DNA of 32,000 nucleotides from Candidatus Thorarchaeota archaeon (GTDB lineage: Archaea > Asgardarchaeota > Heimdallarchaeia > Hodarchaeales > Hodarchaeaceae), in the NCBI GenBank assembly GCA_048882505.1, contig JBHLRO010000004.1, positions 140,193 through 172,192 of the forward strand. Reading direction: 5' to 3'. Below are positions 3,634 to 31,711 of this stretch, piece by piece. Each line of letters starts with the position of its first letter. Positions within the stretch are counted from its first letter, which is position 1. Both the position numbers and the translations under genes were made by a program. The notes below the pieces were generated by a model. That model saw only the letters and a program-made list of their open reading frames with translations, ran no database searches and had not been told where the DNA came from.

Positions 3634-3751
3634 AGTTTCTGTGAATGTGAAAATTGATCAGAGGATTCAGATTTTTGCTTCTGATACAGGTTTTCTAGGG
3701 AGATTAAGATTATGAGCGTTTGCTAAAGTGTTAATAATCTAGTATGCAGAA

Positions 3752-3766
3752 AGTAACCTAATTACT
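3752..3766. promoter_or_regulatory. Palindrome AGTAA-N5-TTACT, candidate transcription-factor site
   Basis: Perfect 5-bp arms in an intergenic region; related AAAGTAACC copies at 10554-10570 and 11824-11840. Confidence 0.35.
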
Positions 3767-3886
3767 CTCCGTCCTCTGTCCTAGGGGGACTTTACCTGTA
3801 ATTTCTGGGTTTCATTCAATTCAAAACCTCAAACTTGGAGGCTTCTTTATGAATTCATAATCCTTCGAGGCAGATGTTGGGTTTTA

Positions 3887-4276
3887 CTAGGTGTATTTCG
3901 AGGGACACTTAGTACTGATCAATCTTGCCTTGAACTTCCATAGATTAGCTATAGAGAGGAGCTCTCCTTCAACAAGCACTGTTTTTCCAATCTCAAATCC
4001 TGAGGGTCTTATCACATTAGTTGAATTGACATAAATGAGTAATGACGTATTATCAACGTCTTCAGGATCAGAGATATAGAAACCCGTGCTATTCATGTCT
4101 TCTACAACTCCTATAACTTGGATATTTTTATTCATTAAAGAATCGGGTTGAGAATGATCTATTAGTTCTTTTACGGTAAATACTGGAGTAGAAGTATTTG
4201 CTATGAGAAGAAAGAAAGCACCCAAGCAAACAATGACAGTCGAGATAACTATGATAAGATTTTTTGTACCAGTCAT
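3887..4276 (-). CDS. ccmE: Cytochrome c maturation heme chaperone CcmE, CxxxY variant
   Basis: N-terminal TM, OB-fold-like core (IQVIGVV...VLVEG), C-terminal KCPSKY; lies 18 nt downstream of ccmF. Confidence 0.85.
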   Translation of the reverse strand: MTGTKNLIIVISTVIVCLGAFFLLIANTSTPVFTVKELIDHSQPDSLMNKNIQVIGVVEDMNSTGFYISDPEDVDNTSLLIYVNSTNVIRPSGFEIGKTVLVEGELLSIANLWKFKARLISTKCPSKYT

Positions 4277-4294
4277 TCTGTTCGCCCTCGGTTT

Positions 4295-6520: not shown

Positions 6521-6537
6521 TTTTTCATCTCCATTGT

Positions 6538-8760
6538 CTACTTAACGCTCTTTACACCTCTTCTGGCTCTCCTTCCTTTCCGTCTTTGGTATCTTTCAGC
6601 CCTCATGGACTTTAATGTCCTACGTGCGCTCTTTTTCTTTAGTTCGACATATCCATAAAGCCCTCCAGGAATACCAACCAAAACTACAGCTAGTACCAGG
6701 ACTATGAAAGAGATTGGAACTGGCTGTAGCGGTGCAAGTATTTGAAATGCCCCGCTCTGACCGTAACCATAATTGCCGCGATCATCGATGGCCTCAAAAT
6801 AATAGGCATATGTACCTACAAGATATAATCCATTAGGAAAATTGACTTTCCAAAGATGAGGACCAATCTTGTTTAGGGATACGGATTCTTCGGTGGTTTC
6901 GGGAAGATGGTAATACATACGAACTGATTGAACTTCCCCTTGGACAGGGACATCGATTGCTGTTACAACGATTGAAAATTCTGCTCCGGGAATGATTTCA
7001 GTCGAGGGATCAAAACCCACTTCTGCAATATGAGGCGCCCAAACATCATGTCTCCAAAGGATTTCATAAAAACCACGGACAACCTGATTCCCTAAGGTGT
7101 CATTAACGATGATATAAAACCCAATCTTTGTACCTTCTTTGTGAGAAGGAAGTTCCAAGTTATAGAGACCCCCAACTTTGGCACTCGGCTCCATGTCTAT
7201 TAATTCGTAAGGAGCCTCATCTAGCGTATAGTTAAACAAGACGTCTGATATCCCATCAGAATCAGATGCTGCAACTGTTACTGTTACAGATTCTTGGGGA
7301 CGGGGATTCGAAGGTGACCAGATGGCATTAAGAACCCCCGGTTTGCTGTACATCCAGAGATTTGCCAATTCGTACACGGATAATGCCTGTGTAACACTGA
7401 ATTTGTTGTTCCAATAATCAGAACCGACTGATCCATCAGCATTTGTTATTTGATAATAGCCCAAGTGATTTTGATCGTATAACTTATTGTTGAGGAATTC
7501 AACAATATCTAGAATGATATTGTAGAATATATCCTTATTTGTGACCTTAAATGCTTCATCAAGGGCCCTGATGCCGTAAAAAAGTCTCTCGGTGTATTTC
7601 TTTTCATCTCTCTGAATAGATTCATCGGATGAGTAGGTTGCGTAAAACCCGCCATATCGTGAATCCCAAAAATCGAGCATGACGATATTTATCAGGTACA
7701 TAAAGTCATAATAATATCTAATATCTTCTGTGGAATTATAAAGATGGGCCAGAAAGCTAAGGATAAGTGAGTTCGTAAAAATATCCACTGAGGACGGATT
7801 TACGACATCTTTTTTGCTATCCAATCCATCATAAAACAATCCAGTTTTGGCATCTCTGCACGTTTCATTTAAGAAATCAAAAATCTGGATAGCTTTTGCA
7901 AGATATTCCTCATCGTTTTCAACCTGATATAGATTCAGTAGTACATCTCCCATTAATGCGTTATGATCAACCCTAACGGATCCAGGATCGAAGGGATCGT
8001 TAGGACTTGGATTTTCAGTCGCAGTTAATCCATAATGAGTGAGTAAATAATCGTAATATCCATAATTGCCCTTCCATGCATGAGAATCTAGAAATTCTTG
8101 TGCATCTAACGCGATTTCATGATAGCTCTGATTTTCAGTAGTCTCATAGAGAGCTAAAAGCGCCTGGATGGCTTTTGCGTTAACTCCTGGCTTTTTGTAT
8201 TGATTATTTGAAGCAATATAGAATCCACCGACATTATTGTCGTACAGATCTCTGATCAGGCAGTTTCCAGTTTCTATGGCAATCTCAAGAGCAAAATTTC
8301 TTTCTGCCTCATTAATTACAGCATCTGAAAGTTTTAACAATGCCAAAATCGCTTGGGCATTATCATAGGTACGCTTTAGGTGATTTACGGAACTTGGCTC
8401 CCAATTTACGCCCGCAGAAACGTAAAAACCTCCTGAAACGTTATCATATAAATAATCAATAAGAGCATTAGCAATTTCCACTGAATAATAAAGAAAATTC
8501 GGAAAATATGCTTCAGGATCATCTGTAGTTTCTGAAGTTGACTTCCATCGAACGGGGAAACTATTCTGAGAATCTTCGTCGATTTCTCGTACTATTTGCC
8601 CTCCCCTGGTGTTATAATTTAAATAGGCAAAGCTCGGGTTCGAAAAACCAATGAAGCTCTGAAAGACTAGGATATTCGCCAAAACCAAGAGGAGGGCACA
8701 ATTCAACCATTTGGTTTTTCCATTACGGAAATTCAAGGTAATTTGCATAATAGTGTTCAT
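6538..8760 (-). CDS. Exported, membrane-anchored six-hairpin (alpha/alpha)6-barrel protein (YyaL/AGE/GH76-like) with C-terminal Ig-like domains
   Basis: Repeated (L/W)(Y)D..GG(F/Y)Y units; HLKRTYDNAQ resembles the YyaL motif HFEKMLYDNAQ. N-terminal hydrophobic signal, C-terminal TM plus very basic tail. Frame is open to 8904; likely start is ATG 8760 or 8748 after AGGAGA. Confidence 0.6.
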   Translation of the reverse strand: MNTIMQITLNFRNGKTKWLNCALLLVLANILVFQSFIGFSNPSFAYLNYNTRGGQIVREIDEDSQNSFPVRWKSTSETTDDPEAYFPNFLYYSVEIANALIDYLYDNVSGGFYVSAGVNWEPSSVNHLKRTYDNAQAILALLKLSDAVINEAERNFALEIAIETGNCLIRDLYDNNVGGFYIASNNQYKKPGVNAKAIQALLALYETTENQSYHEIALDAQEFLDSHAWKGNYGYYDYLLTHYGLTATENPSPNDPFDPGSVRVDHNALMGDVLLNLYQVENDEEYLAKAIQIFDFLNETCRDAKTGLFYDGLDSKKDVVNPSSVDIFTNSLILSFLAHLYNSTEDIRYYYDFMYLINIVMLDFWDSRYGGFYATYSSDESIQRDEKKYTERLFYGIRALDEAFKVTNKDIFYNIILDIVEFLNNKLYDQNHLGYYQITNADGSVGSDYWNNKFSVTQALSVYELANLWMYSKPGVLNAIWSPSNPRPQESVTVTVAASDSDGISDVLFNYTLDEAPYELIDMEPSAKVGGLYNLELPSHKEGTKIGFYIIVNDTLGNQVVRGFYEILWRHDVWAPHIAEVGFDPSTEIIPGAEFSIVVTAIDVPVQGEVQSVRMYYHLPETTEESVSLNKIGPHLWKVNFPNGLYLVGTYAYYFEAIDDRGNYGYGQSGAFQILAPLQPVPISFIVLVLAVVLVGIPGGLYGYVELKKKSARRTLKSMRAERYQRRKGRRARRGVKSVK

Positions 8761-18149: not shown

Positions 18150-18911
18150 TTGCCAAACAAGATGCACTCTAAACAGATGATAGCATTTCCTCTTGTACTG
18201 GCACTGTTCTTGGGTTTTGTATCATCTATTGCCTATAATCCAGAGGGGATTACTTCTTTTGAAGATTACCCTCTTGGGCCATTTTCTTCTTCTGCTTCCT
18301 CGCCGTATTCGCTCCATTCATGGTTTCCAGAGGTGGCCTCAGACCCTATCGCCGCCATCGTAGAAGATTCAAATCACGTTTACCATGGAAATCGCTCGCT
18401 CATGTTGAAGATTGATGGGAGTGGAGACGATGGCACTGTATGGCTGCAAACGGCCATTCCTGCTGCTTCGATTGGTAATCCAGGATCCAAACACACTTTT
18501 TCGATCAGTGCCTGGATTTGGGCCGCCCAACAGTCCGACTTGAACCAATGGCCTGTAATCGCAGCCATTAATACGTCTCCTCCCGTTGTAAATGACGCAC
18601 GGCAAGAAATAGATTTTACAATCATTGGATTTACAGAAGAGAAGGCTGGCTGGAGCGAATACAGTCTCGAAATTATTGATTTCGAGCTGGTTAACCCATT
18701 GGATGCCCAGATCTATGTTTCTTTTGGAATCTCCGTGACATGGGAAGCAAATCGCACATATTGGGTGGATTACATGACGATTAAAGTCGACTCTAAGATA
18801 TATCAAGGTCTAACCATGAACGAACCATTTCCAGGGATCCTTCTGGTGAGTGGTGGAATTGCCCTAGCTCTTTTCGTTGCGGTAAGAAAGAGAATGCGAA
18901 GATTTAACTAA
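18150..18911 (+). CDS. Exported beta-sandwich (carbohydrate-binding-like) protein with C-terminal TM anchor
   Basis: N-terminal signal, YHGNRSL and WVDYMTI strands typical of galactose-binding-like domains, C-terminal TM followed by RKRMRR. Confidence 0.55.
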   Translation: MPNKMHSKQMIAFPLVLALFLGFVSSIAYNPEGITSFEDYPLGPFSSSASSPYSLHSWFPEVASDPIAAIVEDSNHVYHGNRSLMLKIDGSGDDGTVWLQTAIPAASIGNPGSKHTFSISAWIWAAQQSDLNQWPVIAAINTSPPVVNDARQEIDFTIIGFTEEKAGWSEYSLEIIDFELVNPLDAQIYVSFGISVTWEANRTYWVDYMTIKVDSKIYQGLTMNEPFPGILLVSGGIALALFVAVRKRMRRFN

Positions 18912-19588
18912 TGTCTTTTCTTCCTACGCGATTTTTTTACTTCTATCAGTTTTTCTTTCTCAAAAATTCCCTCAATACTCTCCATTCTTTGATCTAAACG
19001 TTTTTGAATTACTGCTGAGAATCCTTCAAGCTCCTGACTCCCTTCCATACCTAGCTCCTTGGAATATTCGTAGTTTAGGTTTCCATAATCCTGCAAACGT
19101 CGTGACATGTATTTCTCCAGAATCTCTTCCATACTCCCCTCCTTGCCAATAAAGCCCCGTAACAGTCCCATCAGCCCCAACCGATCTAACGTATCAGCGT
19201 CATACACCACCTTTTCTTCAGGAGTCTGAGGAGGAATACCACTTGTCGGAGTATGTCTTACTACTACTCGAGTAATTTGATCTCTGACTTTGTGATCTAA
19301 ACTGCCGATACCTTCTAGGAACTCCTCTGCAATGGATCCTCCAAAAAGCCCATGGAAACTGGAAAACATTGAATTAGTTTTACCAATATCATGTAAGAGG
19401 GCACCACTGATGGTTACAAAAGGGTCAACAGGATCTTCAATATTCTTAGCTATTTTGATAGCATTTCGCGCCACAGTGAGCACATGCGAATAGTCATGGG
19501 AATCCGATGTGGCATGACAGCGTTTTACAAACTCCTGAATACGCAGGAGAATTCCTAACTCCTCGTTTGTTAAAGTTCGAGTAAACAT
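18908..19588 (-). CDS. HD-domain metal-dependent phosphohydrolase
   Basis: HDYSHVLTV, LLHDIGK, HT, YDADTLD. Convergent 4-nt overlap with the neighbouring gene. Confidence 0.85.
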   Translation of the reverse strand: MFTRTLTNEELGILLRIQEFVKRCHATSDSHDYSHVLTVARNAIKIAKNIEDPVDPFVTISGALLHDIGKTNSMFSSFHGLFGGSIAEEFLEGIGSLDHKVRDQITRVVVRHTPTSGIPPQTPEEKVVYDADTLDRLGLMGLLRGFIGKEGSMEEILEKYMSRRLQDYGNLNYEYSKELGMEGSQELEGFSAVIQKRLDQRMESIEGIFEKEKLIEVKKSRRKKRH

Positions 19589-19725
19589 GAATGATCTTTC
19601 TGCATTCCCAATTTTTGAATGTATGCGAACGAAAGGCGGATAGTTTCTCTAGACGCTGATAGAAGTCAATTTAATTGTCAAATAGCACCAAAATCAACCA
19701 TTGGCTTCTGATCCTTGGTTCATTG

Positions 19726-20883
19726 TCAAGTATGTTTCTCTGCGAAAATGAGCTCTAATGCTTCCTTAACTGGGGAATTAAGCTGATAATTCACCTCTCG
19801 GCCGATCTTCATGTATTTAACCAATTTTTCCTGAACGAGCCCTTGACAGGAATAGGTGAGGGAACTTTCTTTGATCCCTGTTCGTGCTTGGAGCTCTGAA
19901 CGCTGAATTATACCCGTTTCGTGGTTCAGGAGTAACATCTCATCCAAGATTGTTGTTTGTGATTCACTAAACGGTCTCATTGGAGTCCCGAGAAGATTTA
20001 CGATTCCTTCCGCGTTTACGAATTCTTCGAACCTAGAGAAGCGAGCCAAAAGCTTGAGTGCAGGAATGTAACGGAGTTGGCTGATCCAATGCTCCAGATC
20101 AGGGAGTTCTAAACGAGGAACTTCTATTCCAACTCCGAGACTAGGGATTCCGTTCAGAATATTCCTCACAAGCCAAATAGCTAAGCCTGGAAGCCCAAAT
20201 GATAGCGTTGCGATTGCTTGGATAGCCTCAGGTGAAAAAGGGGACGGTTGTTGGGACCATCGAATGCGAGATTGGATAATTTCCACGATTTCCCTTGTCT
20301 TGGAGATCCCAAAGGGATGAAATTCTCCTGGTTTATCGAAGACCATCAGGTTCGTATCTGGAGCTCCTTGACGTAACCAGTAGTATTCCAATGTGCTTAT
20401 GATGACCAAAACGACAAGTTTATGCTTTTTAGCGCGGTATTGAAGGTTTTCCAAAGACTCTTGCTTCAAATCACGCCAAATTGGGAATACGCTGTCTAGA
20501 ACCAAAAATTTGGTGTTGCTAAGATCGACATCCTCCCACCAGGCCCAAAATTCTGGGTCATACAGCCTATATTGCGCATATTTCGGGCCATATTCTGCTT
20601 GCAACTGATTAACTGCAATGAGCGCTGCGGTGGACTTTCCACTTCGTCTTGGCCCATGGATAACCACCACGTCTTTCTTAATTTCGTCAATCCAAGCAAT
20701 TTTGTTTGCTAAAACACTGATTTGTTCCGTATCCACCGTTAAATTTGGTTTTTGGCGGGTTAATTCAAATTCATCACTAAACGCTTCAAGAAGGAGTTGT
20801 GAATTTTCGTATTGTGCCTTCCGTTTTTTCGCTTGGTCTTTGGCCTGCTTAAATGAATCAATAAACGAAGGCAGATAAGCCAA
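19726..20883 (-). CDS. P-loop ATPase (AAA+/Cdc6-like architecture) with C-terminal winged helix
   Basis: Walker A GPRRSGKS, degenerate Walker B LVLDSV, lid-like FSPEAIQAIATLSFGLPG, wHTH ending KIGREVNYQL. Confidence 0.65.
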   Translation of the reverse strand: MAYLPSFIDSFKQAKDQAKKRKAQYENSQLLLEAFSDEFELTRQKPNLTVDTEQISVLANKIAWIDEIKKDVVVIHGPRRSGKSTAALIAVNQLQAEYGPKYAQYRLYDPEFWAWWEDVDLSNTKFLVLDSVFPIWRDLKQESLENLQYRAKKHKLVVLVIISTLEYYWLRQGAPDTNLMVFDKPGEFHPFGISKTREIVEIIQSRIRWSQQPSPFSPEAIQAIATLSFGLPGLAIWLVRNILNGIPSLGVGIEVPRLELPDLEHWISQLRYIPALKLLARFSRFEEFVNAEGIVNLLGTPMRPFSESQTTILDEMLLLNHETGIIQRSELQARTGIKESSLTYSCQGLVQEKLVKYMKIGREVNYQLNSPVKEALELIFAEKHT

Positions 20884-20936
20884 CTCCAGAAATAGGAATC
20901 TGAGTACGTTGTAAGGATTGGATCACGAGTACTCAC

Positions 20937-20984
20937 TTCGAAACACCCGAAGTATTTGAAATATTCGAAATTTGAAATATCCGA
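20937..20984 (+). repeat. Three tandem imperfect 14-bp repeats TTYGAAAYAYYCGA
   Basis: TTCGAAACACCCGA (20937), TTTGAAATATTCGA (20955), TTTGAAATATCCGA (20971), in a divergent intergenic region. Confidence 0.55.
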
Positions 20985-21074
20985 CAATATATGTATATGA
21001 CGATATTATCCCCAGACATTTCGCCAATTACAGGGAAAGAACCTCTTTAAACCACTTTCAGAATCTGTTCAATC

Positions 21075-21323
21075 ATGAGGATTACCTACCCCGAAGATCT
21101 TAAATGCCCTCATTGCAAGGCGGTCATTAGACTAGATTCCAGCGTAGGACTTACAGCAAGAACAGACGATTTACTCATAATCAGTATTGATGTTCCTTGG
21201 AGTATGAACAGCGCGAAAGATATGCGATCCAATAAACAGAATATCGGGCTTAGCGCACCCAAATTTGTTATCTGCCAATACTGTCACACGATCTTGGGGA
21301 CATATGATTATAGATCACATTGA
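21075..21323 (+). CDS. Small Zn-ribbon protein
   Basis: 82 aa with CPHC and CQYC pairs. Confidence 0.55.
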   Translation: MRITYPEDLKCPHCKAVIRLDSSVGLTARTDDLLIISIDVPWSMNSAKDMRSNKQNIGLSAPKFVICQYCHTILGTYDYRSH

Positions 21324-21357
21324 AGTTTGGTCTTCTTATGGCTACTATGAGTTTGAC

Positions 21358-22029
21358 TCAATGTGTATATCCTGCAAGAACAGCTGAGATAATCCGATTC
21401 TCAGCTTTACGTAAATGTTCTGTCACAGTGGATTTAGTTATACCGAGCTGTTTGGAGAGGTCTTCCGTGGTGATTCCCCTAGGGGATTGATAATAACCCC
21501 TCTCTTTAGCTTGCAAGAGAATGTCTTTTTGTTTTTCTGTCAGGATAGAAAGTAGATCAAATTCAGTGAAGGAGTAATTCTGGATTGAAGTTACTTTGAT
21601 GGTCCATAAATCCTTAAAAAACGAAAGAAGGGCTTTTATTGTCTCATTTTCCCCAATAAAGGATAGAACTAGTTTCTCCTCATTGATGAATCCCGGAAGG
21701 TCAAATATGACATCGAACTTTTGAGCAAGAGGAGCGTATTGTTCAAGCATACCAAGTTGGTCAGATAGATATTGAATTTTGGCCAGACAGGTGTAATTAT
21801 TGCCGCTTTCGCTTAAAATCGCCAATGAAAAAAGGTGTTCAGGGGTTTGTAGGTCCTTTAGAGTGTAACCTTCTTTCATCTGAATTTGTATGATAAGTAG
21901 CTTCATACCTCTCTCCAAATCCAATCTTAAAACGGCCTTTAGTTCAACTGATTCAACAGTATCAAAGATAGCAGAGGGTAGAATTCCTGAGAGTGATTTC
22001 GGATCTATTTCGAGGATGACTTTCCGCAT
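21358..22029 (-). CDS. Bacterio-opsin-activator-type (HTH_10) transcriptional regulator
   Basis: LTEKQKDILLQAKERGYYQSPRGITTEDLSKQLGITKSTVTEHLRKAENRII; divergent from the methyltransferase. Confidence 0.85.
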   Translation of the reverse strand: MRKVILEIDPKSLSGILPSAIFDTVESVELKAVLRLDLERGMKLLIIQIQMKEGYTLKDLQTPEHLFSLAILSESGNNYTCLAKIQYLSDQLGMLEQYAPLAQKFDVIFDLPGFINEEKLVLSFIGENETIKALLSFFKDLWTIKVTSIQNYSFTEFDLLSILTEKQKDILLQAKERGYYQSPRGITTEDLSKQLGITKSTVTEHLRKAENRIISAVLAGYTH

Positions 22030-22067
22030 ATGGGAATTCTGATTCGCTGCTTTAAAAATACCCGCCC

Positions 22068-22797
22068 ATGAACGGAGATAAGTTCATGGGGAGGACCGAC
22101 AATATTGTCCTGAATTCAGATGTGATTCGGATGGGGCAAAATCAAGAACAAAAATCTAAACGAAACCTAAGCATTTACGACATCGGGGGAATCTTGGGAA
22201 CAGAAGCTGGTCATTTCGGAGGAATGCCTGCTACAGCGCGTTTACTAGAAATTATGGAGATCAATCCAATGGAGGACAAACGGTGGCTGGAGATTGGATG
22301 TGGTTCGGGTACAACAAGTTGCTTTATTGCAGAGCGATTTCCCCAACTTCAGGTGATCGGAATTGACCTTTCTAAACAAATGATTGCTAGCGCGAAAAAA
22401 CGCGCCCAAAAGAATCAGCTTTCCAATGCAGAATTCCTCGTCGCCAATGCCCATAATTTGCCTTTCAAAGACAATTTTTTCGACGTGGTAATCGCTGAGT
22501 CCGCTACTGGTGTAATACCAGATAAATCAAGGCTTCTTCGGGAATACTTAAGAGTTCTAAAGCCAGGTGGTAAATTTGGGAACATTGACGGATTTTTGAC
22601 TTCTGAAGCCGCCCCCGAAGTGGGAACAAAGATAAGTGAACTAATGACCGGCGTTATTGGATCATCAATTGCCATCCGCACCAGCCAGGAATGGAAAGAT
22701 CTATTTCGCGATGCAGGGTTTTCAAATATTAGAACGGAAGAAAGTAGACAAGACGTGCTCCCTTTTACAACTACTAAGGTCATTCGTAAAACATATG
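22068..22797 (+). pseudogene. Class I SAM-dependent methyltransferase, 5' part of an interrupted gene
   Basis: WLEIGCGSGTT, VIGIDLS, ANAHNLPF, FDVVIAES, RVLKPGG. The 255-aa ORF reads into the insertion, stops at 22835 and lacks the final beta strand. Confidence 0.88.
22791..22797 (+). repeat. Left copy of 7-bp direct repeat ACATATG (target duplication or crossover core)
   Basis: Identical to 27478-27484 and in the same codon phase (ACA TAT G) of the methyltransferase. Confidence 0.85.
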
Positions 22798-22830
22798 TTG
22801 ATCTTAAGGATACCTCGGCGCTTAGAAATG

Positions 22831-22851
22831 TGTAAAGTTAGGTGGTGTGCT
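22831..22851 (+). repeat. Left arm of an imperfect 21-bp inverted repeat (partner 27460-27480)
   Basis: TGTAAAGTTAGGTGGTGTGCT versus reverse complement TGTAAAGTGGTGGGGTTTGCT: 16/21, first 8 identical. Confidence 0.65.
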
Positions 22852-22982
22852 TTATTCTTGGTGGGAATATGCTTATTCTTTCGGAAATAATGGGGAAGTA
22901 TAATCCTACGGAGACATTATCTATTATTGATTCAACAACAGCCTCAAAAAGGGTGCAAAAGTAAACGATCTCACCCTACCCC

Positions 22983-23014
22983 TATATCTTACTATCTATA
23001 TATCTTACTATCTA
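22983..23014 (+). repeat. Perfect 16-bp tandem duplication (TATATCTTACTATCTA)x2
   Basis: Read directly; lies in the non-coding left end of the element. Confidence 0.85.
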
Positions 23015-23024
23015 ATCCCTTCTC

Positions 23025-23537
23025 TTAATCCCTTTCTACTCGTCTTTTACGAATCAGAACTAATGTTAGCCCAATTAAGACCAACCCGATAATTTCTATC
23101 CCGTAGGACGCATCTGAAACAACACCCGTCTTTGTAATCGTTGCAACGACCATATCGGTGAAAACGATCTGGAAAGTCACTTCATAAGAATTTGCGTAAA
23201 TAGTCTGAATTTCAAACGTAAAATTAAGAGTATTTGAACTAGAAAAGGTAATCTGACCCGTCCAAGTGTCTTGAAGAGAGCTTAATCCATCGGGGCTTGA
23301 TGTCCATGTAAATAATGTTGCTGTATTATTAGATGCTGAAACATACGCCACGTATGAGCCAGCAGATCCATTTGCTTCAATAAAAACATGATAATCGCCT
23401 GCTGGTATAAACACTGATTGTTGACTCGGCGTTGTTGTCGTTGCTCCTCCAATGATCGATATTTGATTACCACTAACAGGAATTAAAGTCATACCCAGTA
23501 GTAAACTAAAAATAACCAATAACCCTATCTTTTTCAT
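23025..23537 (-). CDS. Element-borne cell-surface protein with signal peptide and PGF-CTERM-like anchor
   Basis: MKKIGLLVIF signal, beta-rich body, SYGIE-TM-RKRR tail, GAGGTGG SD. Confidence 0.75.
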   Translation of the reverse strand: MKKIGLLVIFSLLLGMTLIPVSGNQISIIGGATTTTPSQQSVFIPAGDYHVFIEANGSAGSYVAYVSASNNTATLFTWTSSPDGLSSLQDTWTGQITFSSSNTLNFTFEIQTIYANSYEVTFQIVFTDMVVATITKTGVVSDASYGIEIIGLVLIGLTLVLIRKRRVERD

Positions 23538-23586
23538 CTTCTACCACCTCATTTTCCTCTTCATTTAAAATTCCGTAATTTCTTGA

Positions 23587-23811
23587 CTAATCCGTTGAAA
23601 TGTTTCTTACAGCGCTGACAATTTCAACTTCACCTTGATTGTCCATTTCTAATTGCTGTTTTAAAATGGTAGCTAATTGAGTTTTAGTTGAAATTGTATG
23701 AAAACTTTCTTCTGCTCGTTCTTGATTTCGTTTATCGGCAAAATCTTTGACAATTATAGCTAAACGCTTGTATAACACCATCTTTTTTTTGATTATACAG
23801 CATAGGTTCAT
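23587..23811 (-). CDS. Element-borne small hypothetical protein (74 aa)
   Basis: GAGGTAGAGG SD; ATGA overlap with the upstream micro-ORF; helical and charged. Confidence 0.55.
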   Translation of the reverse strand: MNLCCIIKKKMVLYKRLAIIVKDFADKRNQERAEESFHTISTKTQLATILKQQLEMDNQGEVEIVSAVRNISTD

Positions 23812-23879
23812 TTTCTAGCCTCTACCTCTGGAATATAATAGTATCCATCTTTGTATTCCTGGAATAGGGAATATAACAT
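23808..23879 (-). CDS. Putative 23-aa micro-ORF MLYSLFQEYKDGYYYIPEVEARK
   Basis: ATG overlaps the upstream TAA (TAATG); its TGA overlaps the next ATG (ATGA). Confidence 0.4.
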   Translation of the reverse strand: MLYSLFQEYKDGYYYIPEVEARK

Positions 23880-24499
23880 TAATTCCTTGTATTATTCTCC
23901 GATTTCTCAAGATTCGGATTCTTTTTTACATCTTTGAGAAAATACTCTAAATTACTTGGTTTAATCACTTTTGGATACCCTACTAGTGCAATCTTAACTA
24001 CTCTGTCTTTGGGTCTTGCTTTAATGGGAATATCTACCTTTTTAACGCTTCTAATCACATGCACTCCCATAGCCTCAGGAAGTAGCGTGAAAATTCTAGG
24101 GGTATTCTGACAAAATTGAATACATTTTTTCTTTAACCTTGATCTTACTCCTCCTTGCCAATATAGCACATTTCTACACTGTTTTTCCGTCCAATTCGGA
24201 TGTTTCTCTTTCATTTTGTCTCTATGTGCTTTCAGATTAAATTCTTCCAAAATAAACCAATGGTTCTTACTTAAATCGATAAAATCCTCGATTAATGGGG
24301 CTTGCGGCGGACATTCCAGTTTCTTGGCATAGTTAGGACACCCTCTAGGATGATTGGGATACGGTAGCCTGCACCACTCCCTCGCTCTATGATCAATAAC
24401 CAGCTTGCCTGTGACATCACACCAAGATACTGATAGCTTTGAAGCCCTAGCAACTATAGAAACCCATATACTCGTCAAAAAATATTTTGAAAACACCAT
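23879..24499 (-). CDS. DUF2284-like Cys-rich predicted metal-binding protein
   Basis: WCRLPYPNHPRGCPNY....CPP, CRNVLYWQ, PEAMGVHV; GGAG SD before ATG 24499. Confidence 0.7.
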   Translation of the reverse strand: MVFSKYFLTSIWVSIVARASKLSVSWCDVTGKLVIDHRAREWCRLPYPNHPRGCPNYAKKLECPPQAPLIEDFIDLSKNHWFILEEFNLKAHRDKMKEKHPNWTEKQCRNVLYWQGGVRSRLKKKCIQFCQNTPRIFTLLPEAMGVHVIRSVKKVDIPIKARPKDRVVKIALVGYPKVIKPSNLEYFLKDVKKNPNLEKSENNTRN

Positions 24500-27296
24500 T
24501 AAACTCCGAAATCAAGAGGAATATGGGGTAATTGAAGCTGCTGGTGTCCTTGGAAGAAAAAAATGGGGAATATATAATAAAAAAGGAGAAATCCATTGTA
24601 AAGTTCACGGCAAAGGGGCTTACAAAGGTTCTGATGAGGCCTACAAGGAACTCTATAGAAACTATCTAACTACTGACTATTCCCATCAAGAAAATGCTCG
24701 TCTAGCCATCAAAAAGCACCCCGTTTTTCAATCCGTCAGTTATCGTAAAAGTGATTCATCATTTTTCAAAGGAATTATTCCCTTTCTTAAAAAAGGAGAA
24801 TTAATCAATCAATTCCAATTCAACGAAATTCCCCTCTACATCTATAAACTCCAAAACGGAAAAGACTACGATTATTTGATTATTAACACTACCAAAATCA
24901 ATAAAGCTCAGTTCGGGTCGTATCTCAAACTCGATCAATTCTCTAGTAATAAAGTCATTTTCTGTATCCTCGCTCCTTGTCAATTTATGAATATTGTCAA
25001 ATTTATCTTATCCAAACCAGAAGAAGAGACAGGCATAATACGCAAAACCAAATACCATTATACTAAAAAAATTCGCCATATCTATGATGATTTGACAATT
25101 ATTCTTGATCCTCTTACTCCCGAGTATAAAGTTGATGATTACGGAGAGGTCAATACTTTTATTCAAGAGCCCTTTGATCATTTACGAAATGTAAAAAACT
25201 TTGAAGAATTTTTCAAAAAAGACAAACGCAAATTAGCCAATGCTCTTAAAGAAACCTTTGAACGTCTTCTTGGAGGATCATTACGAGGAGACCTAGAAAA
25301 TCTTACACCAAAAACCTGGAATAACCTAAGTGAATCAGCAAGCGAATTAAATCTTGACAAAGATGAATTCCTTGAAGTATTCGCAAGATATGCTCGTTTA
25401 AACAAGCTAGTAGATTACCATTACGACCAACTCAATCTAGAAGACATAGAAAAAGCCGATTTATACAGTCAAGCCTCCGAAAAGAAAAAACTCCATAAAA
25501 AATTCGTTAAACTCCTCGAATTTGACAAATCACGCTTTCATCGGAACCGTAAAATCCTACCAAACAAAACCTACAATATTATGATTCCAAGACCTTATAA
25601 ACGGCGAATTAAACATGATACCCTCAAAGAATATAAGAATCGTGACAAATTTACCTCTGATGGCTTCAGTTTTATCTATTCTGGAAATCTCCCAGATATG
25701 GATTTTTCCGCTGATCTGCTAAGCCAACAAAACAAGTACTATTCCCAAGCCATTACTAATATAGCCTTAACCGCCAGCATAATCTGGGCCAAAACACATT
25801 ATACTAATCTTACCACCATAAACGAAAAAATCAATAACTACCTTACTGCAAAAAAAGAAGATCAAATAACCCTTCCCTGCCCAAAAACCAACAAATACGT
25901 CCTAGTTCCATTCAAAATTCAACGTAAAATCCCTCTAGATACCACCCAAATCGATCATGAAACCTTCGTTCAACTTTTCGATTTGACCCTTCGGCATAAA
26001 TTAATCAAAAACAAAATCCTCATCAAACAAGATAATAAATATATTGTCAACGATACTTCTAAATTCAAATCTTACCTCAAACGCAATTATAAATATGAAT
26101 GGATTGAAATTGACTGGTTAAAGCGAAAATGGAGCGTTTCTATCGAAAAAGGTGCAAGCCTTGATTATAATGCCACCCTTGCCAACAAAATTACCGTTGA
26201 TGAAACACAACTCGGTAAACGCACCTTTGAGTGTGGTCTCCGTCTAAATCCCTCCTCAAAAAATTTACACAACATAGATCTGTTTAAAACAAGCGTTGAT
26301 GAACTAGATGAGAATTCTGCAATCGGCAAAATTCTGCTAGAAAAACTCTTTGAATCGAATCTGTTGACTTATTTTGCCAAAAAACGGGCAACCCATAAAG
26401 AAGATTTACAAAGCGCTTCTAAACCGTACGATGGCTATAAAATAACCTATCTTACACTCGCCCATTCCAACATACAACGTAAAATTCCCCAATTACGCCC
26501 TAAACTAAGTATTGTTGCTTATACCTTGGATTTGAATACATTAAGTTCCACTACTAAGCTCGTTCCCCATTTAAACGGTCTTTTCAGAGCTCGATTAAAC
26601 GATATTTACAATCAAATCGAAGACATGGGCGAAAGAATCCAAAAAATGCTATCAGTCAACGTTTCAACAAATCGATTCTCCCTTGGATTCAATATCAATT
26701 ATTATGAAGACAAATTCACAATCTCTATCTACGGTAAAGACTTCTACCAACATTTAAGCAAAATCAAAAGAGTCTCAAACCATGAAAAACTAGAAGATCT
26801 ACCCCTGCAAAAAATACGCCATCTAGAAGAACTCAAAGAACTAGAAAACGATCGACATAAGCTTAGAATTGAATTAACAATCCGAGGGTGGGAACAAATT
26901 CACACAAAAGCCTACTACCAATACTTAGACCAAATAAAACATCTCATTTTGCGTCAAGATCTCGCTTTATACAATGAAAACATCAATCTACACTGTCCAA
27001 TTAAAAAATGTCAAAAACAACCATTTAAAATCTTCTATTTAGAAAATCATATCGAATTAATGTGTCCCAAATGCCATACCACCCATAAATATGATTATAA
27101 CGAAATCAAAAACAATACCCAACATTCTGAATTAAAAAAACTCACTGAACTAGAAATTCAAGCCAATAAAGAACTAGATAGCATAGAAAGAAAAATCGAG
27201 AATGCTACTGGTAAACCAAATGGATTGAGTCGGAACAATGGAGAAATTAAAGAAGACGAACAATCTAAACAAACAAAATTGACTGATTTTGGGTAA
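24405..27296 (+). CDS. Large basic element protein (963 aa): putative Rep_trans-fold replication initiator or TnpB/Cas12-like RuvC protein, with Zn finger and C-terminal PIP box
   Basis: Motif order IDWL(569), LRLNPSSK(612), SIVAYTLDL(702), ISIYGK(773), LRIELTIR(820); CPIKKC...CPKC(864-890); QTKLTDF(956-962). Start uncertain (TTG 24405 overlaps the divergent gene). Coding status is secure; the family call is tentative. Confidence 0.4.
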   Translation: MPVTSHQDTDSFEALATIETHILVKKYFENTIKLRNQEEYGVIEAAGVLGRKKWGIYNKKGEIHCKVHGKGAYKGSDEAYKELYRNYLTTDYSHQENARLAIKKHPVFQSVSYRKSDSSFFKGIIPFLKKGELINQFQFNEIPLYIYKLQNGKDYDYLIINTTKINKAQFGSYLKLDQFSSNKVIFCILAPCQFMNIVKFILSKPEEETGIIRKTKYHYTKKIRHIYDDLTIILDPLTPEYKVDDYGEVNTFIQEPFDHLRNVKNFEEFFKKDKRKLANALKETFERLLGGSLRGDLENLTPKTWNNLSESASELNLDKDEFLEVFARYARLNKLVDYHYDQLNLEDIEKADLYSQASEKKKLHKKFVKLLEFDKSRFHRNRKILPNKTYNIMIPRPYKRRIKHDTLKEYKNRDKFTSDGFSFIYSGNLPDMDFSADLLSQQNKYYSQAITNIALTASIIWAKTHYTNLTTINEKINNYLTAKKEDQITLPCPKTNKYVLVPFKIQRKIPLDTTQIDHETFVQLFDLTLRHKLIKNKILIKQDNKYIVNDTSKFKSYLKRNYKYEWIEIDWLKRKWSVSIEKGASLDYNATLANKITVDETQLGKRTFECGLRLNPSSKNLHNIDLFKTSVDELDENSAIGKILLEKLFESNLLTYFAKKRATHKEDLQSASKPYDGYKITYLTLAHSNIQRKIPQLRPKLSIVAYTLDLNTLSSTTKLVPHLNGLFRARLNDIYNQIEDMGERIQKMLSVNVSTNRFSLGFNINYYEDKFTISIYGKDFYQHLSKIKRVSNHEKLEDLPLQKIRHLEELKELENDRHKLRIELTIRGWEQIHTKAYYQYLDQIKHLILRQDLALYNENINLHCPIKKCQKQPFKIFYLENHIELMCPKCHTTHKYDYNEIKNNTQHSELKKLTELEIQANKELDSIERKIENATGKPNGLSRNNGEIKEDEQSKQTKLTDFG

Positions 27297-27459
27297 TCCT
27301 TCCTTTTCAATCTAACTCTAAACTGATTTTTTCATATCATTTCTGTTTTAAATACTTACAATTCCCTACTTTTCTTGATTTTCGCAGACTTAGCTTCACG
27401 CTAGGCCTACCCCGACTGTGCTTGACTGCACTTGACCTCGCTTTGTTTCCCTTACCCTC

Positions 27460-27480
27460 AGCAAACCCCACCACTTTACA
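27460..27480 (-). repeat. Right arm of the imperfect 21-bp inverted repeat, abutting and overlapping the 7-bp core
   Basis: AGCAAACCCCACCACTTTACA pairs with 22831-22851. Confidence 0.65.
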
Positions 27481-27663
27481 TATGGAATTTTTGGAATAAT
27501 CAAAATTACCTTCCGACTCGGGTATTACATGATTGTCAACTCCAGTTTCAGAGGCGTCATAAACAAAATCAGAAAAACTCGAGGGTTTATGTTCGCAAAA
27601 ACTAAGGGCGGATCGTATCGTAATTTGGGATATCAAATTCTGGCGGCCTCAAAACCTATCTAG
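27478..27663 (+). pseudogene. Class I SAM-dependent methyltransferase, 3' part (61 codons plus TAG); first 7 nt are the right ACATATG copy
   Basis: TYGIFGIIKITFRLGYYMIVNSSFRGVINKIRKTRGFMFAKTKGGSYRNLGYQILAASKPI*. Ends in an LGY....(R/S)KP-type terminal strand, has host-like GC and joins the 5' part in frame. Confidence 0.85.
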
Positions 27664-27719
27664 CTGTTGTACAAGGAAACAAGATTATTTCAAACCTTCA
27701 AGGTTTGATCCGCACGCGT

Positions 27720-28556
27720 TCATATTGTAATCAAAATAATACAAAATACAGCCAGGACCATCCCAATTATTTGAAGTCGCGTGATTTTTTCCTTGAGAAT
27801 CAGCCATGCCAAGAAAACCGTAACCACTGGAAAGAAAGATGTCAACACTGCAGCTATGTCGAGACGTCCTGTCTGCGTTGCCAAAGCGAAAAAAGTATTT
27901 CCCCCGATATCGAAGATACCGGCTAACGCGATTACAATGAACATTTTTAAGTCCTTAGGGGCGTCTATTTGCCTTTTAGTGAGTAAAATAATCGTCAGGA
28001 CACTAAGTGATGCGAGACGAGCGGCAACTAGTGGAAAAAAGAGTGCTCCTGTAGTCACTCGATCAATAAAGACGAGAAAAAAACCGAACCCCGTTCCCGC
28101 AAGGACTGCAAGCTTGAGCGATTGGAGATGGTAAGTATAATTTGAACCTGAAACAAGCCAGATCGCAACTAATGCCAGGAGAAAGCCAGATATTTGTAAA
28201 GGTGTAGGAAACGTCTCCAAGAATAGTCCTACTAGTAAAGGTATGATTACTGTTGTTACAGAAGAAACAGGAGAAACTATCCCCATGTTTGTCGCTAATC
28301 CGCTGTATAAAGCTAATATTCCTAACACACCACAGGTACCAGCTAAAATACCCCAAAAAATATCATTTAAGGATGGCAGTTGTTCTAACGAGATGAAAGC
28401 AAGTACCAACAATGCTAGCAATCCAAAAATCTGTGAAATGAATACTACAGAATAGACATTCTTTTGTTTTGTAGCCAGTCCCCCGCTAAAATCGCCAACT
28501 CCCCATGAAACCGCGGAGGACAACCCATAGATCGCAGCAACTAGTTCAGTAGACAT
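27720..28556 (-). CDS. EamA/DMT-family transporter
   Basis: 10 TM in two repeats; WGVGDFSGG, MGIVSPV, LAWLILKEKITRLQIIG. Confidence 0.9.
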   Translation of the reverse strand: MSTELVAAIYGLSSAVSWGVGDFSGGLATKQKNVYSVVFISQIFGLLALLVLAFISLEQLPSLNDIFWGILAGTCGVLGILALYSGLATNMGIVSPVSSVTTVIIPLLVGLFLETFPTPLQISGFLLALVAIWLVSGSNYTYHLQSLKLAVLAGTGFGFFLVFIDRVTTGALFFPLVAARLASLSVLTIILLTKRQIDAPKDLKMFIVIALAGIFDIGGNTFFALATQTGRLDIAAVLTSFFPVVTVFLAWLILKEKITRLQIIGMVLAVFCIILITI

Positions 28557-28574
28557 ATGATCTGTATTCCAGCA

Positions 28575-28967
28575 TTAATCTCTTAATGAGCGATTAGGCG
28601 GAAATGCAAGCAACCGAATTCCGACGCCCATAGAACCACCAAGAAATCCAATTAGGGCACCAACGAGGAATATGATTAGTAAAACCAGCCATCCCATCCC
28701 CTGTCCAAGAACCAAAGCTCCAAATTGATTGAGCAGTGTATGAATTGGATTCATCAGCATGTAAACAAACCACGCAAATCCCACACCAGCTGTACCCGTA
28801 AATGCCCCACGCTTCATTGTGGTACAAAATAAACCACCAAAAAACGGAGCAATTATTATGAGTTGCCACAGTGGGGTCAACGAAATTACAAAAGAGAGAA
28901 TGGTTGTTATTAATACGGGAATAGTCTCCCGGTATAATTGATACTGATCAATTTGATTCTGTTCCAT
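28575..28967 (-). CDS. Small Gly-rich membrane protein (about 4 TM), hypothetical
   Basis: Hydrophobic ORF; likely start is ATG 28967 after a GGTGA SD that overlaps the acylase stop (frame open to 28994). Confidence 0.7.
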   Translation of the reverse strand: MEQNQIDQYQLYRETIPVLITTILSFVISLTPLWQLIIIAPFFGGLFCTTMKRGAFTGTAGVGFAWFVYMLMNPIHTLLNQFGALVLGQGMGWLVLLIIFLVGALIGFLGGSMGVGIRLLAFPPNRSLRD

Positions 28968-28968
28968 G

Positions 28969-31638
28969 CTATTCACCTGATTTCCTGAAAACAATTGTAC
29001 CTTCTATGCGAACTGCACGATTGTGGATCTTGGTTGGGGTATCTGCCAAAAAGTAGGGATCATGATATTTGCCCTCTAAGAATAATTGGAGTAACTGGTC
29101 ATTATAGTGCCTTGAGGACGTTATTCCTCTTTGCCCTGATGGAATTACAGCCAAAGACTTATTCATATTCGAGAAATCCACGATGATCCGTTCCGATGCA
29201 CCTCCTAGCGAGGAATCGGGCCTCAGAATCCAGTTGGCAAAGTCTATGTTGTTTGTATAACTTGGACTTAGAGTTACGCGTGACCCATCGCCAGGGAAAG
29301 GTCCAGAACTAAAGGCTCTAATTGGGAGAAAGAGCTCGAACAAATGGCTGAACTTTTTCTGGTGTAGCGTCCCCCACGTCCATGTGGAGATATCTGTACC
29401 AAAATAGTCTTGAAGTAACTCAAGGGCTTTATCAAATGCTTTTAAAATAATACTGTTTCTTGTTTCAACGATAGAGGGTGTATTGACATCATCAAACCAC
29501 TTTGAACTGGGATTTTCCTTCGTCAATTTTTCTAAAACTGGCCACGATGGGGTCCTAGGACTTCCCTGCGCGGCCATATCATCTTCAAAAGTCATATGAT
29601 GATAGATATTGAACCATATTTCGAAGATAGTGGGAGCAACTGCATCTTTCTCCATGATGAAGTTCCAACCGTCGAGTACCTTGTATGCTGCCTGTTGAAT
29701 TCCTTCAAGGGATCGGATTTTCAGTGTATTAAGAAGATATGGAGTAAAATTACCCGCCCGCACGTCGTACACATCATTCTGGAAGGTTATCATGTCTTCG
29801 ACCGTTATCGAATCGTCGTAGGACAAAAGATGGTTAATTCGACGTGCACGATAGCCATCTGCCCCGCCTTGATTAATAATAGATACATTGGAATATTTTG
29901 GACCCGCTATCACTTGATTTGCGGAGGCCAAATAGCCTTGCTTGGGATTTTCAGCCTGAGGCCGCTGCTCAAATGGCCAGAATCCAAGCCATTCACCTTG
30001 GCCCAACGAACCATTATATGGCATAGAACCTCCTCCAGTGTGCCATGTGGGAAGATTAGTATCATTTCGAATGGGAACCTTGGCATTTGGTCGCATTCCA
30101 ATGTTGCCATTCACATCTGCATAAGCGACGTTTAAAGGAAGCATTTCAAAGTAACGAATCGCATCCCCAAACTCCGAAATATCATGCGCATGAATGAATT
30201 GATAGCCAGCCCGAAAATCCATCGTAACGGCTTGGGATACCCACCTACAAGCGAGGACATTCTCCGAATAATTGTCGGGAATGGGAATTAATCCTGTAAA
30301 AACGGGCCCATGGACAGTAGAATTGACAACAAATTTTACAGGTTCAGGTTCTCCCTTTACAGGGATTTCTATTGCTATATTTTCAAATTCGGTGGCAACT
30401 CCTTTGTACCAGTAGTGAGTTTCATTTATGCCATTGTAATAGTACCAATCCAAAAGATCATATGCTGCAATTGTGTTTCCCCATGCCACATACCTGGTAA
30501 ATCCGGCTGCAGGAAAATTGATTCCTGGAAGGAACACGCCATAAACGTTGAAATCACTGGATAGATCGATCAAATGAGCTTCGTACCACATCCCGGGAAG
30601 TGTCCACCCCAAGTGCATGTCGATCGCTAGCATAGAGTTACCAGTAGCTGTTTTGTTACTGCCAACGACCCAATTATTGGAACCTCGATACCCAAGGTCA
30701 AGTTTTTCATTAATTCGGCCAGCTTCCATTGGAAGCTGGGCCAATCTATCCATGAATGAATTAACGAGGTCTGATAACCGTTCCGGAGGGGATTTGACTG
30801 AGTATTCCTCTCTGCCCTTTAATTTTTCAGGATTGGAGGCATTCAACGAAATATCAGAATATTCGCCATAGCTAGGGACTACCGGAATTTGGTAAGGGAG
30901 GGGAAAGCCGAATAATTCGTTATAATCTGCTGCGCCAAGCGCATCCATTACCTGAAATCGTGAAAAATCTCCGTAACCCCAGGTAAAGTATTCTGATAGG
31001 AATTTTACCAGAACCATTGTATCAATGAGCTTCCATAATCTATTATTTGGTTCAGCACCAATCAAATAATATTCGATAGGCTTATCCTCTGGATGGAGGG
31101 TAAGATATGTGTTTATCCCCTCCGAATAGGCAACCAAGGCTTGATATATCGCTTCAATTTCAGGATCATCGCGATTTGCAAGGATGAAGTTGACAGTCTC
31201 ATTAGCCCAATGATTTTGGAGTTTCATAAGATTAAACATGTCTGTTTTTAGGCTAGCTGGGCCTAAAATCTCCGAAAGAAGGCCACGAGCAATGCGGCGA
31301 AAAAGATCCATCTGAAACCACCGATCTTGGGCGTGTACATACCCTAACGCAAACATCAGGTCGGGTTCATTGGTTCCGTAAATGTGGGGAACTCCCCATT
31401 CATCACGATACACGCTCACGTCATCAACCAATGAGGGCAAAGAGAGGGTCTCCCAGTTGGGATTTTCTTGGGGGATAGTCCAAATACCATTTCCCGGGAG
31501 CAACAAGGCTCCGAGAGGGGGTATAATGCTTAATGGCAAGGATAACAAAATTATCATGAGTAGAGTGGCTATTCCAGCTATAGTTGTTTTAATCAGAACC
31601 ATTTTTCGGGAATAAGACATAATCAATCCGATAAGCAC
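28969..31638 (-). CDS. Penicillin acylase family Ntn-hydrolase (peptidase S45), membrane anchored
   Basis: RDEWGVPHIYG, GYVHAQDRWFQMDLFRR, GSNNWVV (N-terminal-nucleophile Ser), DMHL, STVHGP, SANQ; N-terminal TM. Start probably ATG 31620. Confidence 0.92.
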   Translation of the reverse strand: MLIGLIMSYSRKMVLIKTTIAGIATLLMIILLSLPLSIIPPLGALLLPGNGIWTIPQENPNWETLSLPSLVDDVSVYRDEWGVPHIYGTNEPDLMFALGYVHAQDRWFQMDLFRRIARGLLSEILGPASLKTDMFNLMKLQNHWANETVNFILANRDDPEIEAIYQALVAYSEGINTYLTLHPEDKPIEYYLIGAEPNNRLWKLIDTMVLVKFLSEYFTWGYGDFSRFQVMDALGAADYNELFGFPLPYQIPVVPSYGEYSDISLNASNPEKLKGREEYSVKSPPERLSDLVNSFMDRLAQLPMEAGRINEKLDLGYRGSNNWVVGSNKTATGNSMLAIDMHLGWTLPGMWYEAHLIDLSSDFNVYGVFLPGINFPAAGFTRYVAWGNTIAAYDLLDWYYYNGINETHYWYKGVATEFENIAIEIPVKGEPEPVKFVVNSTVHGPVFTGLIPIPDNYSENVLACRWVSQAVTMDFRAGYQFIHAHDISEFGDAIRYFEMLPLNVAYADVNGNIGMRPNAKVPIRNDTNLPTWHTGGGSMPYNGSLGQGEWLGFWPFEQRPQAENPKQGYLASANQVIAGPKYSNVSIINQGGADGYRARRINHLLSYDDSITVEDMITFQNDVYDVRAGNFTPYLLNTLKIRSLEGIQQAAYKVLDGWNFIMEKDAVAPTIFEIWFNIYHHMTFEDDMAAQGSPRTPSWPVLEKLTKENPSSKWFDDVNTPSIVETRNSIILKAFDKALELLQDYFGTDISTWTWGTLHQKKFSHLFELFLPIRAFSSGPFPGDGSRVTLSPSYTNNIDFANWILRPDSSLGGASERIIVDFSNMNKSLAVIPSGQRGITSSRHYNDQLLQLFLEGKYHDPYFLADTPTKIHNRAVRIEGTIVFRKSGE

Positions 31639-31711
31639 GTAGAATAAAAAGTTAGGTTGATCCCTTCATCCTTGACAAAACTGGTTTGATAGCTGTTTTA
31701 GTCGTTCAAAA

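Follow-up and report, generated by a model that had tools for sequence, protein, structure and literature searches.

Positions 24405-27296 of the 32,000-nucleotide stretch of Candidatus Thorarchaeota DNA analysed here (the window) carry an open reading frame (ORF) of 963 residues, P0001, which is probably the rear 55% of a fusion replicase from mobile elements of Asgard-type archaea. The intact relatives appear, with good probability, to combine a complete family B DNA polymerase (PolB; 3'-5' exonuclease and polymerase), a variable linker and a C-terminal Rep_trans-like nuclease module of ~450 residues. Judged from its predicted structure, this module is likely to have the fold of a Rep_trans rolling-circle initiator and not that of a TnpB/Cas12-like nuclease.

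A preliminary description of the window, made from the sequence, offered both of these readings for the C-terminal part of the protein and preferred the first. That preference is borne out by fold searches and by the pattern of invariant residues; the fusion to a truncated PolB was missed. The fusion explains the large size of the protein and its seemingly unrecognisable N-terminus, since what remains is the truncated rear part of a polymerase fusion.

The polymerase half and its truncation

The frame of the 963-residue ORF is open stop-to-stop from 24393, and 0 of 2,000 shuffles of the ORF sequence are free of stops. Its features upstream of the Rep-like module are as follows.

24405-27296, + strand: 963-residue ORF (P0001), a 5'-truncated PolB-Rep fusion gene (open reading frame and homologue alignment)
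24423-24569, + strand: PolB palm remnant, with motif C (QDTDS, residues 7-11) and a KKxY-type motif (GRKKWG, residues 50-55) (alignments A1, A3 and A5; A3 profile)
24522-25034, + strand: alpha/beta domain, residues 40-210, confidently folded and conserved in the family, at the position of the polymerase thumb
25035-25586, + strand: variable linker, residues 211-394, little conserved, disordered or helical in the model (A5; predicted local distance difference test score, pLDDT, <50 at residues 215-351)

A word-based search finds three relatives. One of these, the nearest named relative, is a 1,323-residue protein from a Hodarchaeales metagenome-assembled genome (MAG); its contig has an uninterrupted frame of 1,755 codons (P0005). 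An exhaustive profile search finds 45 relatives of P0001. Seventeen of the 45 are 1,591-2,037 residues long, and in these the P0001-like part is the C-terminal half, starting from about residue 780-880. P0001 itself aligns only to residues ~780-1664 of P0005.

The N-terminal halves of eight full-length members (alignment A3) have invariant DxE, NxxxD, YxxxD, DxxSxYP, KxxxNxxxG and DTD motifs as well as the K of KKxY; exonuclease motifs I-III and polymerase motifs A and B are present and invariant. Among solved structures, the A3 profile finds family B polymerases (Sulfolobus PolB1, KOD, Pol delta and Pol alpha) over motifs B, C and KKxY, with E values down to 1.7e-10. One relative, P0017, carries a precomputed PF00136 match. 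Sequence searches of the PDB with P0005:1-820, A1 and A4 return nothing relevant; only the eight-sequence N-terminal profile A3 matches. Pfam and PHROGs searches with P0001 and ten full-length relatives give no informative match, tblastn of the polymerase part against a phage collection gives none, and an IMG/VR scan with a family query finds no relative.

In the alignments, QDTDS and GRKKWG of the window ORF fall opposite the DTD and K that are invariant in the full-length relatives. The first ~560 residues had been described as matching nothing; residues 8-11 (DTDS) and 50-55 (GRKKWG) are in fact PolB motif C and KKxY. The ~780 N-terminal residues that are missing have no match upstream in the window or elsewhere in the 4.3-Mb assembly, and neither the window ORF nor any other part of the genome contains exonuclease motifs I-III or polymerase motifs A and B. 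Since P0001 starts at motif C and the missing residues match nothing in the window or the assembly, the window gene is a 5'-truncated polymerase fusion. On its motif content, it is a fragment unable to polymerise DNA. The window copy is a decaying remnant: its exonuclease domain and palm motifs A and B are gone, its start adjoins an unrelated DUF2284 gene, and it sits at the right end of an insert.

The C-terminal Rep-like module

Conservation was assessed in alignment A4, which comprises P0001:395-963 and 24 relatives with 21-60% identity (25 sequences). Y776, K778, K786, R821 and E823 are invariant; five further positions, D419, N615, N623, F657 and R789, reach at least 90% conservation. No such conservation is seen at D709, D897 or the Cys pairs. 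K778, R821 and E823 had been put forward as invariant candidates and all three are; Y766 and Y767, also proposed, are not, and the invariant tyrosine is instead Y776 (IYGK). The module is an independent unit of about residues 410-860, since a standalone homologue of 508 residues exists (P0024, at 6001-7527 of locus L034); this homologue lacks the polymerase, possesses an ATG and a ribosome-binding site of its own, and begins 10 residues ahead of the SDG motif. In the window copy the module is, as far as its residues tell, intact. The Rep-like part had been placed from about residue 560; the Rep-like fold starts near residue 410.

The features of the module and of the tail that follows it are as follows (TBP, TATA-binding protein; PCNA, proliferating cell nuclear antigen; PIP, PCNA-interacting protein).

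25632-26984, + strand: predicted Rep_trans-like (TBP-fold) nuclease module, residues ~410-860 (AlphaFold2 model; structure matches; standalone P0024)
25659-25661, + strand: D419 (in SDG), near-invariant, the proposed counterpart of RepDE D46 (A4 column; RepC SFD(46)AM; role of D46 from PMC13107129)
26730-26738, + strand: Y776-G-K778, invariant Tyr and Lys; proposed catalytic tyrosine and counterpart of RepC/RepDE Y191 (IY(191)NK) (A4; motif order)
26865-26873, + strand: R821-I-E823, invariant; putative counterpart of RepC R212-V-E214, a metal ligand (A4; motif order)
26994-27104, + strand: zinc ribbon, residues 864-900, with four Cys (CPIKKC ... CPKC), in the five closest sequences only (A4 columns 750-840; three short strands in the model)
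27132-27209, + strand: long C-terminal helix, residues 910-935 (DSSP helix 516-541 of the model)
27270-27290, + strand: putative PIP-box-like C-terminal motif QTKLTDF (A1 and A4 C-termini; common only to P0003, QSKLIDF)

An AlphaFold2 model of residues 395-963, built with A4, has a pLDDT of 84 and a predicted template modelling score (pTM) of 0.82. The structure comparison that had been suggested as a check finds the TBP-like fold of RepDE and RepSTK1: the model matches TBP-like Rep_trans/G2P initiators in five structure libraries, although every match is modest. Clusters of the AlphaFold database (AFDB) give 'Replication initiation factor' twice, G2P and RstA. BFVD gives Inoviridae G2P (E = 1.1e-3), a viral TFIID and A0A345MNV4. 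In a shape search of the ESM Atlas, Rep_trans, Phage_CRI or G2P clusters occupy five of the first seven rows, with template modelling (TM) scores by hit of 0.41-0.55 over 197-253 residues. Swiss-Prot structures give weak rows for NicK and staphylococcal Rep, and Foldseek against the PDB finds no match at E <= 1e-3.

In characterised Rep_trans proteins, which have a TBP-like fold, Y191 is catalytic and D46, D142 and E214 hold the metal (PMC13107129). The order of motifs is shared: SD419G, LD709, IY776GK and RIE823 in the window protein correspond to SFD46, LD142, IY191NK and RVE214 in RepC. In the new family, three of the four counterparts show no or almost no variation; the exception, D709, corresponds to D142, whose counterpart is dispensable in RepSNJ2 (PMC13107129). 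It is proposed that Y776 is equivalent to Y191, E823 to E214 and D419 to D46.

The strings on which the two early readings were built are all present at the places given: IDWL (residues 569-572), LRLNPSSK (612-619), KLSIVAYTLDL (700-710), FNINYY (762-767), TISIYGK (772-778), LRIELTIR (820-827), YYQYLDQIKH (837-846) and CPKC (887-890). The numbering of D709, E823, D897 and N899 is right, and the range in question, 26097-27104, corresponds to residues 565-900. The pT181 RepC strings quoted for comparison are also real: the 314-residue RepC sequence has RIEFNPNK, TRLD(142)LAFD, FIRIY(191)NK and WRVE(214)IELK.

The second of those readings was a TnpB/Cas12-like RNA-guided nuclease with a RuvC triad of D709, E823 and D897, a zinc finger, and an omegaRNA in the 180 nucleotides after the gene. 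CPKC-x6-D-x-N and other TnpB-like strings are present, the 3' flank of the gene is conserved, and Cas12f chains are listed by Foldseek at E 0.057-0.25, with Cas12f1 at E 0.12 in Swiss-Prot. However, D709 and D897 vary among the 25 homologues, so that only E823 of the triad is kept, and the Cys pairs of the zinc finger occur in the five closest sequences only. The Cas12f rows have TM scores of 0.09-0.13 and probabilities of 0.09-0.15, which is the level of noise; the Swiss-Prot Cas12f1 row covers model residues 20-302, outside the proposed RuvC region, and no Cas12 or TnpB chain is found among the 50 best VIA rows. Rfam has no match in the 3' flank. Furthermore, the flank is a DNA terminal block common to elements which have no such gene (in genome G058, and at the second copy in genome G061), and the junction with host DNA lies inside it. 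The TnpB reading is rejected on these grounds and is given next to no credence. One sub-threshold Rfam match lies inside the ORF at 26266-26339 (+ strand); it is RAGATH-1 hammerhead-like, scores 26 bits against a gathering threshold of 56 (E = 0.35), and is taken as chance.

A second alternative is that the module is a TBP-like or START-like domain which binds DNA or a ligand and tethers the polymerase to the origin with no cleavage. This is improbable, given that the invariant Tyr, two Lys, Arg and Glu occupy adjacent strands and follow one another as the active-site motifs of Rep_trans do, and that the named matches in three predicted-structure libraries are replication initiators and not TBPs.

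The C-terminal tail of the window protein, QTKLTDFG, resembles a PCNA-binding box; the pattern Q-x-K-L-x-D-F-G occurs only in P0001 and its closest relative, P0003. Many A4 members end in a DPPPD or PPP-type motif. The two kinds of ending may be alternative tails for partner binding.

The inserted element and its terminal block

The window gene lies in a low-G+C insert of 4,680 bp, whose boundaries are defined by an empty site in a genome of the same genus (G070). On contig C108 of that genome, the sequences corresponding to window positions 18501-22797 and 27478-31663 are contiguous, at 90-91% identity. The G+C fraction is 0.35-0.37 inside the insert and 0.42-0.44 outside. The insert splits a gene for an S-adenosylmethionine (SAM)-dependent methyltransferase (22068-22835 and 27478-27663), the upstream part of which gains a 13-codon tail and a stop from the element. 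For this genome, the gene is best annotated as part of the truncated remnant of an element whose insertion broke a methyltransferase gene, not as a CRISPR-like nuclease. The features of the insert are as follows.

22798-27477, no strand: inserted element remnant, 4,680 bp, low G+C, absent from close relative G070 (empty-site comparison)
22791-22797, no strand: left 7-bp direct repeat ACATATG, in host methyltransferase sequence (junction against the G070 empty site)
27478-27663, + strand: right ACATATG copy (27478-27484), then the final ~60 codons of the interrupted methyltransferase gene, now displaced (ORF 27436-27663 continues the G070 frame across the empty site)
27425-27484, + strand: conserved right-terminal block, with TTGAC repeats, a C-rich tract and then CTTTACATATG; host junction inside; proposed origin/nick region (A7, mean identity 76%, five instances)
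22831-22848, no strand: left arm of an imperfect inverted repeat, similar to the right end read in reverse complement (TGTAAAGT..GGTGG) (best partner in the window; score 20 against chance matches of 18)
23025-23537, - strand: secreted or membrane-anchored protein of 170 residues, element cargo (ORF; homologue with 75% nucleotide identity in the G058 element with the same right end)
23587-23811, - strand: 74-residue ORF, element cargo (tblastx match of 45% in the G058 element)
23879-24499, - strand: DUF2284 gene, head-to-head with the truncated polymerase ORF, which its first ~30 codons overlap (Pfam PF10050, E = 5.8e-8)

The stop codon at 27296 and the insert end at 27477 are 181 nucleotides apart, in agreement with the 180 nucleotides between gene end and element end given in the preliminary description. 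The right-terminal block lies in this interval and extends across the host junction. Four further instances exist: one beside the polymerase-Rep gene of the Hodarchaeales MAG, two in G061 and one in G058. A sequence-only model of the five instances (R1) finds a sixth on which it was not trained, at L017:15459-15514 (E = 0.003), 120-175 nucleotides after the P0007 gene. TACATAT-like strings seen by eye in loci L015, L016, L018 and L034 are missed by model R1 and are not counted as evidence.

Both copies in G061 (L013, C144) are on the minus strand, at 3745-3807 and 5253-5315, in tandem and 1.5 kb apart. One lies beside an N-terminally truncated polymerase-Rep gene with two stop codons and the other beside a 349-residue ORF only. 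This arrangement suggests repeated insertion at the element end.

The element in G058 (L035, C47, ~4240-5590 in locus coordinates) encodes the 170-residue protein (75% nucleotide identity) and the 74-residue ORF and has the same right end. It contains neither DUF2284 nor the polymerase-Rep gene, and the G058 genome has no polymerase-Rep match at all; the element is a shorter derivative, possibly a non-autonomous one. Because cargo and right end are shared in the absence of polymerase-Rep and DUF2284, the window and G058-type elements are deletion derivatives of a larger element, with the window ORF representing one stage of decay.

None of the same-genus or same-class genomes searched contains a homologue of the DUF2284 gene; homologues with 25-42% identity occur in another family of the phylum. 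The gene probably arrived by rearrangement inside the element, since no intergenic space separates it from the polymerase fragment.

The left end of the element shows no similarity to other loci, no convincing inverted-repeat partner of the right end is found in other loci, and a hairpin at the reconstructed circular junction is no more stable than those of shuffled sequences (z = -0.8).

Proposed replication and relation to known systems

Rolling-circle replicons are generally held to borrow the polymerase of their host. The fusion suggests a different arrangement. The Rep module of the intact protein would bind the repeats of the conserved block, ~120-190 nucleotides downstream of its own gene, and nick near TACATATG with Tyr776, using a metal held by Glu823 and Asp419. 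Rep would stay attached to the 5' end through Y776 while the 3'-OH released by the nick is extended by the fused polymerase in strand-displacement synthesis. The outcome would be a rolling-circle replicon carrying its own polymerase.

Several observations weigh against this interpretation. Firstly, there is no match to Pfam or PHROGs for any of the 25 A4 members, nor to PF02486 at E up to 5 for these members or at E up to 1 for the genome; a PDB profile search with A4 returns nothing. A comparison of A4 with a seven-sequence Rep_trans alignment by hhalign pairs RxE with RxE and is not significant (E = 0.41). Given the missing PF02486 match and this E value, the module is not a sequence-level member of the Rep_trans superfamily. 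The hhalign comparison of A4 with RepC as a single sequence is likewise not significant; a homologue search with RepC finds near-identical staphylococcal proteins only, which are unusable as a profile. Secondly, the equivalence of Y776, E823 and D419 to Y191, E214 and D46 is drawn only from the order of the motifs and their place on the strands, the tyrosine motif reads YxK where Rep_trans has YxxK, and D709, the counterpart of D142, is not conserved. Thirdly, the model finds the terminal block only in closer relatives (at least ~41% identity); distant loci have a TACATAT-like string seen by eye. Finally, we infer the nicking, the nick site and the priming of the polymerase from the nick.

The invariant tyrosine could also have a different purpose. 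In linear plasmids, fusions of terminal protein and polymerase occur, and a terminal-protein-like domain would use the tyrosine to supply the hydroxyl for the fused polymerase with no cutting of DNA. The covalent fusion of the module to a family B polymerase and the presence of a single invariant Tyr are in keeping with such protein-primed replication. It is nevertheless unlikely: the fold matches Rep_trans/G2P nickases, a standalone module with no polymerase exists, and the polymerase profile matches RNA/DNA-primed family B enzymes (Sulfolobus B1, KOD, Pol delta, Pol alpha) with no phi29-type enzyme at E up to 10. Nor are long terminal inverted repeats seen, and the conserved site in L017 is internal to a 46-kb contig.

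Rep_trans proteins reportedly act as relaxases in integrative and conjugative elements (ICEs) of Firmicutes, and NicK, a Rep_trans-family relaxase, is among the structural matches of the module. A MOBT-type relaxase (NicK or Tn916 Orf20-like) would serve cell-to-cell transfer rather than vegetative replication. We consider this more doubtful still than protein priming, as the polymerase fusion argues for replication and no conjugation genes are recognised in the neighbourhoods inspected. The two roles are mutually compatible.

A wider proposal is more tentative than the replicase assignment itself: PolB-Rep elements may conceivably be self-synthesizing rolling-circle integrative elements, in which Rep both starts replication at TACATATG and joins the element into ACATATG-like targets. 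Integration driven by Rep would explain why the junction lies inside the terminal block, the flanking ACATATG, the tandem ends in one relative and the fact that no integrase or transposase is seen. Loss of an integrase by deletion accounts equally for the flanking repeats, the tandem ends and the missing integrase. If the proposal holds, these elements would be a new archaeal mobile-element class alongside casposons and polintons, one that couples an IS91/Helitron-like cut-and-copy step to a polymerase of its own. The defined terminal block, the 7-bp site and the lack of a recognisable integrase provide a possible handle on how such elements integrate.

The module resembles Rep_trans proteins (PF02486: pT181 RepC/pC221 RepD, RepDE 4CWC, RepSTK1 4CIJ, CTXphi RstA and ICEBs1 NicK) in its TBP-like two-lobed alpha/beta fold, as found by structure search, and in its motif order: an N-terminal S-x-D, NP after a strand, Tyr then Lys on a strand, and R-x-E on the next strand. 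The proposed origin also adjoins the gene. Unlike Rep_trans proteins, the module has ~450 residues with extra helical inserts, usually forms the C-terminal part of a fusion with a family B DNA polymerase and has archaeal hosts; the differences in sequence are those given above. In BFVD and the ESM Atlas, gpII of filamentous phages (Phage_CRI PF05144/G2P) is also among the best structural matches to the module. There is no sequence similarity to gpII, which belongs to bacterial single-stranded DNA phages with no polymerase.

The closest archaeal parallel is Rep-Arvir (DUF7845, PF25227; RepSNJ2 of pleolipovirus SNJ2), an initiator of archaeal mobile elements whose kinship with Rep_trans is visible in structure only (PMC13107129). 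It shows the same pattern of matches, to TBP-fold proteins and Inoviridae Rep_trans proteins including the same entry, A0A345MNV4, and it has a conserved DNA element downstream of its gene (PMC13107129). The new module differs in its fusion to a polymerase, in having no winged-helix domain recognised after the catalytic domain, and in having no PF25227 match at E up to 1 in the genome or at E up to 5 among the A4 members; as a control, the PF25227 model does find matches in Haloferax. Where Rep-Arvir has the winged helix, close relatives of the window protein have a zinc ribbon and a long helix. The published survey of Rep-Arvir contains one doubtful Asgard homologue only (PMC13107129).

HelPrimPolB proteins, the multidomain family B polymerases of mobile elements, similarly join PolB in one chain with a protein that starts replication; their partner is an N-terminal helicase-primase, in contrast to the C-terminal nickase proposed here (PMC7544198). 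A literature search brings up no account of a PolB-Rep_trans fusion. The closest precedents are Rep-Arvir, which has no polymerase and belongs to a different sequence family, and HelPrimPolB, which has a different initiator. If the present reading is correct, a nickase joined to a complete proofreading family B polymerase would form a self-contained initiator-plus-replicase. It would also be a second archaeal branch of Rep_trans/TBP-fold initiators, after Rep-Arvir, in Asgard-type archaea, where mobile elements are poorly known.

The surroundings of the other family members vary. The contig with the standalone Rep homologue (L034) also encodes a 905-residue topoisomerase-like protein, which resembles the 903-residue one beside the Hodarchaeales polymerase-Rep gene (L001). 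Two large loci, L016 (46,969 bp) and L017 (45,658 bp), carry full-length polymerase-Rep genes among dozens of small ORFs with no Pfam matches and are virus- or large-plasmid-like; L017 also has a weak TFIIB-like gene. A weak HNH_5 protein in L015 (3550-4359) and DndB-like and RNase_T-family proteins in L018 (1557-3693) are encoded immediately ahead of full-length polymerase-Rep genes.

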